Shown: piece after piece, positions 7,866-44,107 of the stretch
How the letters are laid out: every line of letters begins with the position of its first letter
Position numbering within the stretch: the first letter of the stretch is position 1
Assembly: GCF_013315695.1 (NCBI RefSeq)
Contig: NZ_CP054353.1
Source: Escherichia coli
GTDB lineage: Bacteria > Pseudomonadota > Gammaproteobacteria > Enterobacterales > Enterobacteriaceae
DNA: 64,000 nucleotides
Strand: one strand, 5' to 3'
Program-made: the position numbers and the translations under genes
Notes under the pieces: model-generated
Told to the model about the DNA's origin: nothing
Databases searched by the model: none
Seen by the model: only the letters and a program-made list of their open reading frames with translations

Positions 7866-8270
7866 ATGGATCAGGTCGTTGTTTTTCAAAAGATGTTTGA
7901 GCAAGTGAGAAAAGAGCAAAACTTCTCCTGGTTTTATTCAGAATTAAAACATCACCGTATTGCACATTACATTTATTATCTAGCTACGGATAACATCAGA
8001 ATTATTACTCACGATGACACGGTTTTGTTATTAAGAGGAACCAGGAACCTGTTAAAAGTTAGTACGACCAAGAACCCTGCTAAAATAAAAGAGGCCGCAT
8101 TGCTTCATATTTGCGGAAAATCTACATTTCGGGAATACTGTTCAACACTGGCAGACGCGGGCGTTTTCCGGTGGGTTACTGATGTTAATCATAACAAACG
8201 CAGTTACTACGCCATTGATAATACGCTTTTATATATTGAAGATGTAGAAAACAATAAACCATTAATCTAG
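7866..8270 (+). CDS. ycgX: YcgX, DUF1398-like protein
   Basis: 134-aa ORF MDQVVVFQKMFEQVRKEQNF... matches recalled YcgX. Confidence 0.8.
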   Translation: MDQVVVFQKMFEQVRKEQNFSWFYSELKHHRIAHYIYYLATDNIRIITHDDTVLLLRGTRNLLKVSTTKNPAKIKEAALLHICGKSTFREYCSTLADAGVFRWVTDVNHNKRSYYAIDNTLLYIEDVENNKPLI

Positions 8271-8481
8271 CTAAAGTTGGATGCTTAAAAAATGCTTCAT
8301 AATTCAGTAAGGCATTAGCATAATGGAAATAAAAGTGCAGAGACTATTCATATGGATGAGTAATACTATCTTTTTATTGCCACCCATAAATAATCACCAG
8401 ATCAATACTATCAACTTGATATTTGAAATGTGATCACTTGACTTTTGATACGTTATTTTATAGCGGTTAACATATTTATAA

Positions 8482-8530
8482 AAAACAATGGGCGTGCCAT
8501 ACGCCCGTTTCAATACTTAACGCACATGTG
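8482..8530. repeat. Hairpin-containing ~50-bp repeat, copy A (GGGCGTGCCATACGCCCG stem-loop followed by TTTCAATACTTAAC), homologous to the icd terminator region
   Basis: About 85% identical to 9343-9395 by eye; possible ycgX terminator. Confidence 0.6.
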
Positions 8531-8974
8531 TTTTGGTTTAGTCATCATCCGGTTATATGTATTTTAGCCAGGAATGGGTTAAACCATTCCTATATAACTA
8601 AAAAATTGAAACCTTATTCTCATGTCATGCTTATATTCGTCATTATCGTTATATAAAAAGGCCAACCATAATGTTTAGCAAATTGGCACAAAGTAGTATA
8701 AAGGCTATGTTTTAATTACAGGATGTTCAGTCATTTGAATGTATAACATTTTAGCTAAACAAATCTAAAACGAAGTGAATAATTTAATGTTTTCACTAAA
8801 TCTCATTTTGTTTAATATCTATTGAGATTTCTTGCTTTAAATTTTGTTTTATATAAACAATGGTTTTAATTTTTAATTAATTTGTTTTTTGAGGGGGTAA
8901 TATACTCATATGCAAAATCAAGAAATAAAAATCCTAATGAACCATATTAAATACCGTGGGATAAGACATAACAA

Positions 8975-9298
8975 ATGAAGTGGATAGTAATTGACACGGT
9001 AATTCAACCTACATGCGGTATATCTTTTTCAGCCATATGGGGTGATATGAAAATGATCATCTGGTATCAATCCACTATATTTCTTCCTCCTGGCAGGATA
9101 TTTACACCGGTTAAGTCTGGTATTATCCTTAAGGATAAAGAATATCCTATTACTATTTATAACATCGCACCATTCAACAAGGATTTATGGAGTTTACTCA
9201 AAAGCAGTCAAGAGTGTCCTCCAGGAGAAAGCAAAATAACAAATAAATGTTTGCATAATAGTTGCATTATAAAAATATGCCCATATGGGCTCAAGTAA
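8975..9298 (+). CDS. iraM: Anti-adaptor protein IraM (RssB inhibitor, stabilises RpoS; PhoP-regulated)
   Basis: 107-aa [26 protein letters not shown]... matches recalled IraM/YcgW. Confidence 0.9.
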
Positions 9299-9400: not shown

Positions 9401-10651
9401 TTACATGTTCTTGATGATTGCATCACCAAACTCTGAACATTTCAGCAGTTTAGCGCCTTCCATCAGACGTTCGAAGTCATAGGTTACGGTCTTGGCATTG
9501 ATTGCGCCTTCCATACCTTTAACAATCAAGTCTGCGGCTTCAGTCCAGCCCATATGGCGTAACATCATCTCAGCGGAGAGAATAATAGAGCCTGGGTTTA
9601 CTTTGTCCTGACCGGCATATTTCGGCGCAGTACCGTGGGTGGCTTCAAACAGGGCGCATTCGTCACCGATGTTTGCGCCAGGGGCGATACCGATACCGCC
9701 AACCTGCGCTGCCAGGGCGTCAGAAATGTAGTCACCGTTCAGGTTCATACAGGCGATAACATCATATTCAGCCGGACGCAGCAGGATCTGTTGCAGGAAT
9801 GCATCAGCAATCACGTCTTTAATGACGATCTCTTTGCCGGTGTTCGGGTTTTTAACTTTCAGCCACGGGCCGCCGTCGATCAGTTCACCGCCAAACTCTT
9901 CACGCGCCAGCTGGTAGCCCCAGTCTTTAAACGCGCCTTCGGTGAACTTCATGATGTTGCCTTTGTGCACCAGGGTCACAGAGTCACGATCGTTAGCAAT
10001 TGCGTATTCGATCGCTGCACGAACCAGACGTTTGGTGCCTTCTTCAGAACACGGCTTAATACCGATACCGCAATGTTCCGGGAAGCGAATTTTCTTCACG
10101 CCCATCTCTTCACGCAGGAATTTAATCACTTTCTCAGCGTCGGCAGAGTCTGCTTTCCATTCGATACCCGCATAAATGTCTTCCGAGTTTTCACGGAAGA
10201 TAACCATATCGGTCAGTTCAGGGTGTTTAACCGGGCTTGGAGTGCCCTGATAGTAACGTACCGGACGCAGGCAGATGTAGAGATCCAGTTCCTGGCGCAG
10301 AGCAACGTTGAGAGAGCGAATACCGCCACCAACCGGAGTGGTCAGCGGGCCTTTGATGGCAACGCGATATTCACGAATCAGATCAAGGGTTTCAGCAGGT
10401 AGCCAGACATCCTGACCATAAACCTGTGTGGATTTTTCACCGGTGTAAATTTCCATCCAGGAGATTTTACGCTCGCCTTTATAGGCTTTCTCGACTGCAG
10501 CGTCGACCACTTTCAGCATGGCTGGGGTTACATCTACACCGATTCCATCACCTTCAATGTAAGGGATAATCGGATTTTCAGGAACGTTGAGTTTGCCGTT
10601 TTGCAGGGTGATCTTCTTGCCTTGTGCCGGAACAACTACTTTACTTTCCAT
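9401..10651 (-). CDS. icd: Isocitrate dehydrogenase (NADP)
   Basis: 416-aa [41 protein letters not shown]...; full length, not interrupted by prophage. Confidence 0.97.
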
Positions 10652-10822
10652 TCACCTCTCCTTCGAGCGCTACTGGTTTGCTCGTCTGCCACCACGTTGC
10701 ATATGCGTTTGCGTCCTGCGATACGGATGCGTTAGAGCAATTTTTTGTTAATGATTTGTAATTGGCTTGTCAATACTACCCTATTGTTTGCCGTCATGAA
10801 AGATGCGCGTTATTAGGCTATA
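10652..10822. promoter_or_regulatory. Divergent icd / original rluE promoter region
   Basis: 171-bp region between the icd start and the K-12-like rluE start codon at 10823. Confidence 0.5.
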
Positions 10823-10897
10823 ATGCGGCAATTCATAATCTCTGAAAATACCATGCAAAAAACTTCTTTTAGACCAAAGACAGTATTTTTCTGACCT
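10823..10897 (+). pseudogene. rluE: Remnant of the original rluE 5' end (17 K-12-like codons MRQFIISENTMQKTSFR, then out-of-context PKTVFF*)
   Basis: Read directly: ATGCGGCAATTCATAATCTCTGAAAATACCATGCAAAAAACTTCTTTTAGA; homology to recalled K-12 RluE N-terminus ends at 10873. Confidence 0.7.
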
Positions 10898-11112
10898 TCA
10901 AATAAGGTATTAAATATCAATAATTTATATCAGATTTTAAGCAATAAAAAAAACCACCAGAGATAACTAACAAGGTGCTATTTGGTCAAAATTTGACATT
11001 ACTCGATTCAGCGACTATCTCACTTTGAGCACTATTGGGAAAATTATCAAAAGTCATAGTTGAAGCGACAAGCAACGAGTAAATTATGGCATCCCCCCTT
11101 TTTGAGGTTCAC

Positions 11113-11199
11113 ATGAAACGCTTTGCACTGATAGCTGTGAAACTCGTTGCCTTTACTGGTTCTGCATCTGCTGCAACCGAAGAAATCAACTTCAAGTAA
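11113..11199 (+). CDS. Small ORF (28 aa) with signal-peptide-like N-terminus, inside the inserted segment
   Basis: MKRFALIAVKLVAFTGSASAATEEINFK*; GAGGT Shine-Dalgarno 5 nt upstream of the ATG. Confidence 0.35.
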   Translation: MKRFALIAVKLVAFTGSASAATEEINFK

Positions 11200-11232
11200 C
11201 AGAAACACTATATAACAATGGAGTGTTGACAA

Positions 11233-11682
11233 ATGGATACTACCGAAGAACGCAATGGAACATATTTCTACAGAGGACACCCGAACCTGTCCAAAATAGA
11301 ACTACTCAACGTCATATTCCTTGAAGAATTCTGTAAGGAATTGGGGATTGATTCGGTATCAGGTGCAGCAATCTTATCTGGTCAACCGTGGCTGGGTACA
11401 AGAGCGAAGCCGCAAGGGGCAACCCTGGGAACAAGTGTTGTCTCAAAGTATGCGCGTATACTGATGAGAGATGCACGCATGCCTTTTGGTATTTCTGTTC
11501 ATACACCAGTGGGTGTAAGGATGCAGAAATCTAATAAGCTTGCTGCAATTATCGCTCGTTGGGTCCCGTGGATTGGTTGGGCTTCACTGTCGATGAGTCT
11601 TTACAGGGTTTCGACTCGTACCCAGGAAAAATACAATCTGATTGCCAAACCTCAAGACCGTATTAAGTGGACTTCCTTCTAA
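11233..11682 (+). CDS. Hypothetical basic protein (149 aa), first gene of an inserted two-gene cassette; candidate toxin or effector
   Basis: Track ORF; GGAGTG upstream; net charge about +9 by residue count; no signal peptide or TM segment; not recognised. Confidence 0.6.
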   Translation: MDTTEERNGTYFYRGHPNLSKIELLNVIFLEEFCKELGIDSVSGAAILSGQPWLGTRAKPQGATLGTSVVSKYARILMRDARMPFGISVHTPVGVRMQKSNKLAAIIARWVPWIGWASLSMSLYRVSTRTQEKYNLIAKPQDRIKWTSF

Positions 11683-12017
11683 TGGCGACAACAATCACAG
11701 ACGAAGTTTTAGCACTGTTCCGTGATGAGATTCCAGGTTATCAGGATGACCACGGGAAGGAAATTCCGTTAGAACTGGACTCTGATTTGTTCGACTATCC
11801 ACGAGATGATTTAGAGGACGCTATACGGAAATACAAAGAGAGGTTTGGGATTAACCTGGATAATCTGGACTGGTCTTTGTACCTTCCATGGGAGTCTGCA
11901 CCATTGCTTCAACGATGGTTCAAGCTCAAGCGGGAAGAGGTAGAAACAACACGTTTACCGTTAACTGTACGGATGTTTGCAGAATCAGCAGAAGCGGGAA
12001 AATGGCTGTATCAGTAG
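11682..12017 (+). CDS. Hypothetical acidic protein (111 aa), second gene of the cassette; candidate immunity protein or antitoxin
   Basis: ATG overlaps the upstream stop (TAATG at 11680-11684); net charge about -10 (24 D/E versus 14 K/R); an in-frame ATG at 11667 is an alternative start. Confidence 0.6.
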   Translation: MATTITDEVLALFRDEIPGYQDDHGKEIPLELDSDLFDYPRDDLEDAIRKYKERFGINLDNLDWSLYLPWESAPLLQRWFKLKREEVETTRLPLTVRMFAESAEAGKWLYQ

Positions 12018-12036
12018 AATAAAAAAGAAGGCTGCG

Positions 12037-12099
12037 ATGCCCCTCTTATTACTGCTGATGATGGTAGTGGTAAAGCATCATCCTAAACTTGAACAGTGA
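12037..12099 (+). CDS. Tiny hydrophobic ORF (20 aa, MPLLLLLMMVVVKHHPKLEQ), speculative
   Basis: ATG preceded by GAAGG at appropriate spacing; located 20 bp after the cassette stop. Confidence 0.2.
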   Translation: MPLLLLLMMVVVKHHPKLEQ

Positions 12100-12349
12100 A
12101 GTGCTGTCACCCATCAGTAATACAGAAACACTATTTTTCATACCAGTATTTATTCAATTCATCAATGTAAAATGTGTTCATTGGGCCATATTTATCACCA
12201 TGCAGCCACACAACCGCTGCTCACTAACCCAGGTATTGATGAAACCGCGCTGAAGAGCCTGAACCCTGAACCTCTAACGAGTACCTTAAAAGTCCAATGC
12301 AATCCGACACTGTGCTACCCTCTGCGTAAAGCTCTATTTGGAATTTACC

Positions 12350-12988
12350 ATGAAATACTTTAGCGATTCTAAATCTTCTTTTAGAAAAAAACAGGTTAGT
12401 CGACTAAACTCGCAACACTCCACTAAGCGTAAACCTGAAAACCAGCCCACGCGTGTGATCCTGTTCAATAAACCCTACGATGTTCTTCCGCAGTTCACCG
12501 ATGAAGCCGGACGCAAAACATTAAAAGAATTCATCCCGGTTCAGGGCGTTTATGCAGCAGGTCGTCTTGACCGCGATAGCGAAGGGTTACTGGTGCTGAC
12601 CAATAACGGCGCGTTGCAGGCGCGTTTAACCCAGCCGGGTAAACGCACCGGAAAAATCTATTATGTGCAGGTGGAAGGTATTCCCACACAAGACGCACTT
12701 GAAGCCTTGCGCAATGGCGTAACCTTAAATGATGGCCCTACCCTGCCCGCAGGCGTAGAGCTGGTTGACGAACCCGCGTGGTTATGGCCGCGGAATCCAC
12801 CAATTCGTGAACGCAAAAGTATTCCCACCAGCTGGCTTAAGATCACCTTATATGAAGGACGTAATCGCCAGGTGCGCCGCATGACCGCCCATGTTGGTTT
12901 CCCCACGCTGCGACTGATTCGCTATGCGATGGGTGATTACTCTTTGGATAATCTTGCCAACGGCGAATGGCGAGAAGCGACAGATTAA
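12350..12988 (+). CDS. rluE: 23S rRNA pseudouridine2457 synthase RluE, mosaic allele with divergent N-terminus
   Basis: Track ORF 12338..12988 (TTG); ATG at 12350 gives [39 protein letters not shown]...; body matches recalled RluE from PENQPTRV onward. Confidence 0.85.

Positions 12989-42266: not shown

Positions 42267-44107
<1,841 letters not shown>

Follow-up and report, generated by a model that had tools for sequence, protein, structure and literature searches.

The stretch of DNA analysed here (64,000 nucleotides of Escherichia coli, contig NZ_CP054353.1 of assembly GCF_013315695.1; hereafter the window) carries, between icd and rluE, a cassette of two small genes, designated A and B, that probably encodes a toxin and its immunity protein. 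Gene A (11233..11682, plus strand) specifies a protein of 149 amino acids (aa) with an isoelectric point (pI) of 10.0, which is assigned to the STM2901 family (Pfam DUF8209) and represents the predicted toxin domain. Gene B (11682..12017, plus strand) specifies a 111-aa protein of pI 4.5 from the DUF1493 family, predicted to be a cytoplasmic immunity protein. An initial annotation had described a translationally coupled pair of one basic and one acidic protein, and its direct readings proved exact. A Shine-Dalgarno-like GGAG (11220..11223, plus strand) is found 9 nt upstream of the ATG of gene A, where a ribosome-binding site had been claimed, and the two open reading frames (ORFs) share a TAATG stop/start overlap (11680..11684, plus strand) that couples their translation, the TAA of A occupying 11680-11682 and the ATG of B 11682-11684. 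Protein A contains 20 Lys and Arg against 11 Asp and Glu, and protein B 24 Asp and Glu against 14 Lys and Arg. This charge complementarity is a property of the whole family, with a median pI of 9.76 for A and 4.66 for B among 58 non-redundant pairs. Both genes are annotated in RefSeq and each exhibits a dN/dS of 0.04-0.14 when compared with relatives in other genera, which indicates that A and B are real genes under purifying selection.

Both family names are annotated by RefSeq in 374 of the 5,426 complete E. coli genomes (about 7%). The pair is at least 99% identical in 373 of these and intact in 371; insertion sequence elements are located inside or next to gene A in two genomes. The cassette is a marker of one E. 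coli lineage, that of IAI39-like/ST648-type genomes. The two proteins had initially been left unrecognised, a statement that no longer holds since both fall into named families, STM2901/DUF8209 and DUF1493, to which no function has so far been assigned. DUF8209, PF26636 and "STM2901 family" were unmentioned in the literature searched, whose coverage was incomplete, and the papers within it that name DUF1493 or STM2901 provide no functional data.

Protein A matches the NCBIfam model NF045926 (STM2901 family) with 156 bits (E 5.7e-46), above the curated cut-off of 110 bits, and the match covers residues 8-142 of 149 and the entire profile (positions 1-140 of 140). PF26636, i.e., DUF8209, is the precomputed annotation of P0001, a cluster 99% identical to A, as well as of each of the 66 homologues, and through this cluster A almost certainly belongs to DUF8209. 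Protein A is free-standing, with its own start codon, its ribosome-binding site and a conserved N-terminus (MDTxEExNGTYFY). Across a 67-sequence alignment of the family, S71, R109 and P112 are invariant and Y13, L24, G38, G50, T67, S68 and G115 nearly so. The conserved stretch T-R-x-K-x-x-G-A-T-x-G-T-S-x-x-S contributes to a conserved T-S-x-x-S / R-x-x-P patch, whereas not one Asp, Glu, His, Cys or Lys is invariant in the family. The AlphaFold2 model computed from the same alignment (pLDDT 78, pTM 0.59) is a long helical hairpin. It comprises short N-terminal beta strands, a long helix (21-50), a conserved loop of low confidence (51-68), a short helix, a beta hairpin (89-100) and a second long helix (103-137), the two long helices making up about half of the 149 residues. 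Structure searches with this model, including Foldseek against AFDB, returned no match to any known enzyme fold. The absence of transmembrane segments, proposed in the initial annotation, is only roughly true for A. Two moderately hydrophobic helical segments (about 24-50 and 103-125) reach a maximum KD19 of 1.24, and the equivalent segments attain the usual transmembrane threshold of 1.6 in 26 of 58 non-redundant homologues, many A homologues being labelled "membrane protein" in public records. The hydrophobic parts correspond to the helix ends that border the conserved loop.

Protein B matches Pfam PF07377 (DUF1493) with an E-value of 1.3e-29 (103 bits) over residues 4-110, against positions 3-107 of the 108 of the model. 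When compared with the sequences of the Protein Data Bank (PDB), the B-family profile retrieves almost exclusively acyl carrier proteins (ACPs), with a best E-value of 4.9e-4, and hhalign gives a probability of 63% for the B family against E. coli AcpP. The alignment runs over the ACP region from helix I to helix II, which weakly suggests that B is remotely related to ACP at the level of the fold. B resembles ACP in size and acidity, and some records name its homologues "acyl carrier protein". It differs from ACP by an additional conserved C-terminal segment (P-L-T-x-x-M-x-x-E-S-A-K-A-G-x-W-L-Y-D) and by its pairing with a toxin gene rather than with genes of lipid or polyketide synthesis. Moreover, the phosphopantetheine-carrying Ser of the ACP DSL motif is not conserved in the B family, DSL being aligned to a non-conserved "D-x-D-D" stretch; B of the window reads LDSDL at this place and close relatives LDYDL or LDTDL, Tyr or Thr replacing S36. 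None of the B proteins of the 58 non-redundant pairs presents a hydrophobic or signal-peptide-like N-terminus. No DNA-binding domain was found in B, which matched only DUF1493 and ACP-like profiles, and neither A nor B matched an ordinary metabolic family in profile and structure searches. A weak DUF1493-profile match elsewhere in the window (43170-43346, E 5e-5) was rejected as a second DUF1493 gene; it is a chance match in a reading frame without a credible protein.

The two genes are co-conserved. We scanned one genome per species with a pattern obtained from a narrower alignment and retained 80 loci, all from Enterobacterales. According to ORF calling, B lies directly downstream of A on the same strand for at least 84 of the 94 A-type ORFs of these loci, and the remaining A ORFs without a called B are contig ends, ORF-calling artefacts or decayed copies. 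Of 82 extracted pairs, 77 show an overlap of 1-16 nt between the end of A and the start codon of B. Similarly, B follows A in 23 of 25 loci from viral contigs. No full-length A without its B partner was seen in the loci examined. Conversely, additional or lone copies of B and truncated copies of A are found at eight loci (L022, L038, L064, L068, L076, L085, L086, L088), an asymmetry typical of toxin/immunity systems. Two loci of Mangrovibacter (L038, L040) pack several A-B and hcp units in tandem into 7 kb; extra lone B genes and decayed fragments of A accompany them, and the whole forms a small effector/immunity array.

A third gene, hcp (tssD), which encodes Hcp, the tube protein of type VI secretion systems (T6SS), adjoins the pair in 54 of the 80 species loci, at a distance of 10-30 nt in 50 of them. 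Its identity as TssD/Hcp is established by NCBIfam TIGR03344 (about 140 bits for a cut-off of 58.9 bits). The order is hcp, A, B in 24 loci, where hcp ends 10-15 nt before A, and A, B, hcp in 26, where hcp starts about 25 nt past B; hcp is nearby on the other strand in 4 further loci, and missing from 18, the last 8 loci being cut by contig ends. When neighbouring ORFs were clustered over the 80 loci, hcp was the sole recurrent neighbour and all others were unrelated housekeeping genes, which indicates small orphan islets of hcp, effector and immunity genes inserted at varying chromosomal sites. The closest relatives of the E. coli A protein in other genera (65-88% identity; L012-L033) are themselves mostly linked to hcp, which is upstream of A in 17 of 22 loci, directly and on the same strand in 16 of them and, in the other (L030), at a distance of about 1.5 kb and on the opposite strand.

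The domain is also found at the tip of much larger toxins. A phmmer search with A against 1.84 billion representative sequences yielded 179 matches, which include proteins of about 150 aa and longer ones of 220-612 aa. In the latter, 0-2 residues follow the match at the C-terminus, except in P0165, which has 17, and the match is directly preceded by the motif that ends the Rhs core, for example YYVRARWYDPKTRRF...DPDGL; in P0186, core end and domain follow one another as YYVRARWYDPKTRRFMVEDP...NDPINLSDPDGL. Precomputed Pfam annotations of these fusions combine TEN_YD-shell or RHS_repeat with DUF8209, and 9 of the top 50 structural matches of Foldseek in AFDB50 are RHS repeat-associated core domain proteins, one of them a Flavobacterium protein of 1,128 aa. 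At four metagenomic or genomic loci (L005, L006 with two copies, L008 and L009), a DUF1493 gene directly follows the Rhs-fused copies. One domain that occurs both free-standing and at Rhs tips, and whose next gene is always the same small one, is the pattern that defines polymorphic toxins and their immunity proteins. Arrays of orphan toxin-tip/immunity cassettes are present in L006 and L008. Another group of fusions, of Bacteroidota type (P0099, P0122, P0128, P0155, P0156, P0176), harbours a Cys just before the domain (…PC-x-F/Y-x-Y…) and a second conserved Cys among the last residues (…GC, …TC, …CS, …CV, …CL). These paired Cys suggest a disulfide that would staple the domain, and hence an extracytoplasmic carrier other than Rhs; P0155 has a lipoprotein-like signal at its start.

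Taken together, co-conservation of the pair, its linkage to the T6SS and to Rhs proteins, and the lack of any match to a metabolic family support the toxin/immunity or effector/immunity half of the proposal made in the initial annotation, for which all three had been named as checks, and support its toxin-antitoxin or defence half less well. We consider it likely that A and B form a polymorphic toxin and immunity module that is mainly deployed as an Hcp-linked T6SS effector. From this genomic context we infer the toxicity of A, its neutralisation by binding, its loading onto Hcp and its site of action as follows. A would be a small basic antibacterial toxin domain, and B its acidic, cytoplasmic, ACP-like cognate immunity protein, made by coupled translation and acting through direct 1:1 binding. 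In Enterobacterales, A, B and an orphan hcp would form three-gene islets from which A would be carried out of the cell by Hcp as a small T6SS cargo effector. Elsewhere, in lineages that include Bacteroidota and Myxococcota-like ones, this domain would serve as the cleavable C-terminal tip of Rhs/YD-repeat toxins.

Several observations speak against such a role. Neither hcp nor a remnant of it was found beside the E. coli pair or anywhere in the 64-kb window. Within the insert that carries the pair, homology to other genera is confined to window positions 11233-12011 and ends at the ORF boundaries; with the hcp linkage of the closest relatives and the lack of hcp here, this identifies the E. 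coli cassette, as far as sequence comparison goes, as an hcp-less descendant of an hcp-linked clade. Its A protein might be loaded on an Hcp from another locus of the genome, or the cassette might be kept mainly for B, which would protect the cell from neighbours that fire the same toxin. Copies without hcp are moreover frequent among plasmids, with 153 records, some of them from conjugative plasmids of the IncFII type. The P2-like phage EtG and similar prophages carry an hcp-less pair as a moron, situated on the opposite strand between the genes for tail-fibre assembly and the sheath, and hcp is nearby in only 2 of 25 viral-contig copies. Salmonella, finally, harbours an hcp-less pair, the original STM2901, next to its pathogenicity island 1 (SPI-1), where it adjoins invH. 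A further difficulty is that B has been modelled in complex with A to little effect: an AlphaFold model of both proteins fused by a linker, A-(GGGGS)6-B, reached a pTM of 0.52 and a pLDDT of 71.5 from a 43-row paired alignment, so that it lends direct binding no structural support and tells neither for nor against it. The conserved loop of A was not improved in this model, and a Foldseek search of it against the PDB returned nothing significant, an ACP appearing at rank 28.

Plasmids, morons and the SPI-1 border also house addiction and anti-phage modules, and these settings keep alive an explanation in which the pair never leaves the cell that makes it. The cassette would then be a self-contained toxin-antitoxin-like module for plasmid addiction, or for abortive infection or superinfection exclusion by prophages: loss of B, caused by a phage or by loss of the plasmid, would free A to attack the inner membrane from its cytoplasmic side and lead to death or arrest. 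Such a module would account for an E. coli copy without adjoining hcp, Rhs or secretion gene and for the hcp-less copies on plasmids and viral contigs; the moron of phage EtG occupies a position at which P2-like phages often carry anti-phage genes, a hotspot for them. A cytoplasmic neutraliser and a toxin with hydrophobic helices also fit killing from inside. However, neither A nor B was matched by any defence-system model of PADLOC-DB v2 (E up to 1), A matched no toxin family of type II toxin-antitoxin systems in Pfam, NCBIfam or the PDB, and the ACP-like B lacks the DNA-binding domain usual in type II antitoxins. The toxin gene furthermore comes first. This explanation also leaves unexplained the Rhs C-terminal fusions and the frequent proximity of hcp, which extends to the nearest relatives of the E. 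coli protein, and we regard it as unlikely, if still the strongest competitor of the T6SS effector reading.

Since B is cytoplasmic in every lineage, the site of action of A must be either the cytoplasm or the inner membrane on its cytoplasmic side. Three features of A point to the membrane, namely its hydrophobic segments, its invariant small residues and the lack of invariant residues of a catalytic type: the two hydrophobic helices, rich in small residues, may enter the inner membrane and dissipate its potential, while the basic T-S-x-x-S / R-x-x-P patch may bind a phosphate-bearing head group. This is a tentative proposal, made with low confidence, and a non-membrane target in the cytoplasm is about equally possible. 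Membrane-acting T6SS toxins and colicins normally have membrane or periplasmic immunity proteins, not soluble cytoplasmic ones, and the soluble cytoplasmic B thus weakens the idea of a pore. The pore-forming Rhs tip Tse5-CT, for instance, has a membrane immunity protein, in contrast to the soluble B. When the A profile was run against PDB sequences, a single local match of 32 residues was obtained, to residues 765-796 of a phage tape-measure protein (8vjh_Q, E 2e-4). This similarity hints at a membrane-active helix, but it is too short to carry an argument and may be driven by composition. The match pairs residues about 108-140 of A, i.e., its last helix (G-R-x-V-P-x-x-G-W-x-x-L-x-Y-D...), with TRLIPIVGWALLAYDIGAIMYDQ. 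If A is indeed a T6SS cargo, it and the tape-measure protein would both travel in a contractile or tail tube.

Among cytoplasmic targets, the ACP likeness of B designates one in particular. A might be an enzyme or a stoichiometric inhibitor of ACP or of another phosphate-bearing acidic target, which B would mimic; delivery would still rely on the T6SS or on Rhs proteins, so that this alternative concerns the killing mechanism only. It is consistent with the almost exclusive matching of ACPs by the B-family profile over the recognition-helix region, with the acidity of B, which equals that of ACP, and the strongly basic character of A family-wide, and with the cytoplasmic location of the immunity protein. 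The most conserved part of A, a polar loop of Gly, Ser, Thr, Arg and Lys together with R109, also resembles a ligand site more than a pore lining. Nevertheless, A has none of the invariant Asp, Glu, His, Cys or Lys residues that catalysis would call for, about half of it consists of two long helices, the ACP likeness is weak and lacks a conserved phosphopantetheine Ser, and many small acidic helical immunity proteins involve no mimicry at all. We thus judge this alternative improbable. Its most explicit version, in which A would seize or modify ACP or another acidic carrier of phosphopantetheine or phosphate and stop lipid synthesis, with B as a decoy derived from ACP, appears slightly less probable still; if true, it would represent a new killing mechanism and a new principle of immunity for T6SS and Rhs toxins. 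Finally, the speculation in the initial annotation, which likened A to small ADP-ribosyltransferases and their R / S-T-S / E layout, has practically no chance of being right, as only its G-T-S (66-68) is conserved, with T67-S68 nearly invariant, R14 being present in 9 of 67 sequences, Q131 in 29, and E132 lying outside the six commonest residues of its column (the commonest, T, occurs 9 times), as the one invariant arginine is R109 and not the one proposed, and as the predicted helical hairpin with short beta hairpins is not a split beta-sandwich and gave no ADP-ribosyltransferase-like match in the structure searches.

To our knowledge, the closest functional analogue of the T6SS effector module proposed here is Tse2/Tsi2 of Pseudomonas aeruginosa. 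Tse2 is likewise a small toxin (about 17 kDa) that acts in the cytoplasm of the target cell, is exported in an Hcp1-dependent manner rather than as a VgrG or PAAR fusion, and has a similarly unclear mechanism of toxicity; its immunity protein, encoded directly downstream, is also small, acidic, all-helical and cytoplasmic. No relationship of sequence or fold was detected between Tse2/Tsi2 and A/B. Tse2 has an ADP-ribosyltransferase-like fold whereas A is a predicted helical hairpin; on the immunity side, a helical-hairpin dimer (Tsi2) contrasts with an ACP-like protein (B). In addition, tse2/tsi2 belongs to the H1-T6SS regulon of one species, whereas the DUF8209 family is distributed over hcp islets, Rhs tips, plasmids and phage morons. 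A second likeness concerns the Rhs toxins, such as RhsA/RhsB of Dickeya and Enterobacter and Tse5/RhsP1 of P. aeruginosa: outside Enterobacterales, DUF8209 directly follows the DPxGL motif and is itself followed by DUF1493. The E. coli A protein differs from them in being free-standing, and is neither an Rhs tip nor a displaced orphan tip. The third concerns orphan hcp islets and Hcp-ET proteins, in which an hcp outside the T6SS core cluster is likewise tied to a toxin and an immunity gene. In Hcp-ET, however, the toxin is fused to Hcp, whereas the DUF8209 toxin is encoded by a separate gene adjoining hcp, and the copy in the window lacks hcp. Orphan Hcps were described in Salmonella and Pantoea (PMC2907695, PMC3942780), and the DUF8209/DUF1493 toxin family is unmentioned in these two papers. 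The system described here is of a well-known kind; what is new is the family, which is uncharacterised. It offers a testable role for two widespread families, DUF8209/STM2901 and DUF1493, which span Enterobacterales, including Salmonella and many plasmids and prophages, as well as the Rhs toxins of other phyla. If this role is confirmed, the T6SS/Rhs arsenal would gain a new toxin fold along with an immunity fold that is ACP-like, a number of orphan hcp islets would be accounted for, and a small, readily cloned toxin would become available. The E. coli cassette itself may influence competition in the gut.

The inserted nature of the segment within core genome, noted in the initial annotation, is confirmed by comparison with E. 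coli K-12 using BLAST. K-12 is colinear with the window up to position 10873 and again from 12371, where the alignment breaks and resumes, and a segment of 1,497 bp (10874..12370) without counterpart in K-12 separates the two. This insert has a GC content of 33-46%, versus about 52% in its flanks, and extends the icd-rluE spacer, which measures 171 bp in K-12, to about 1.7 kb. It is composed of genes A and B with approximately 360 bp of non-coding DNA upstream and 350 bp downstream. On one side, the chromosomal flank comprises icd (9401-10651, minus strand); on the other, the plus strand carries rluE, nudJ, mnmA, hflD and purB, starting at about position 12350. In Escherichia sp. E1V33, the whole insert is present at the same icd-rluE site with 96.4% identity.

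The boundaries of the insert are marked by an imperfect direct repeat of 15 bp, the left copy (10859..10873) reading AAAACTTCTTTTAGA and the right copy (12371..12385) AAATCTTCTTTTAGA, with 14 of 15 positions identical. Bases 585-599 of the K-12 segment compared align to both copies. The repeat encodes K-T/S-S-F-R. The insert interrupts the coding region of the K-12-type rluE after codon 17, and the old start codon remains in a stranded 5' remnant (10823..10894, plus strand) in which the 17 codons are followed by PKTVFF and a stop. The new rluE start, at 12350, is provided by the right end of the insert, and the N-terminus of RluE accordingly differs from that of K-12. The insertion resembles an integration that supplies a surrogate gene end, yet an integrase is absent from the insert. 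A scan of positions 10500-12500 matched no Rfam RNA family, and a promoter and terminator scan found nothing above the expectation from shuffled sequences. Directly upstream of gene A, an ORF of 28 codons (11114-11200) encodes the signal-peptide-like sequence MKRFALIAVKLVAFTGSASAATEEINFK. Indels disrupt its frame in Escherichia sp. E1V33, and the ORF probably represents a remnant and not a gene.

Some copies of the pair in other replicons deserve separate mention. In Salmonella Senftenberg (L095), the STM2901/DUF1493 pair is situated directly after invH at the border of SPI-1, and a DUF1778 and GNAT pair, TacAT-like, is found 1.2 kb beyond it. The record is a "plasmid 2" of 728 kb that carries SPI-1 genes and is therefore probably chromosomal DNA labelled as a plasmid. 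A copy 100% identical to the E. coli pair occurs in a record named "Escherichia phage vB_EcoM-689R6" (ON470584.1; L091). This record harbours an e14-like integrase/excisionase region followed by the host icd, A-B, rluE, nudJ, mnmA and hflD. A phage origin of the E. coli copy was rejected on this account, the record being an e14-like prophage that runs into the host chromosome, and matches to the E. coli cassette in phage databases can thus be contamination by host flanks.

In the window, ycgX, iraM and their neighbours (7866-9298) directly adjoin icd, which indicates that the e14 prophage is absent from the 3' end of icd, unlike in K-12. A-B pairs are located just past the 3' end of icd in Rosenbergiella gaditana (L067) and Pantoea sp. 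IMH (L081), on the same side of icd as the integration of e14 in K-12. The icd neighbourhood seems to collect A-B cassettes repeatedly, at differing sub-sites. The locus of R. gaditana contains two A-B pairs, alongside tail-fibre-like fragments.

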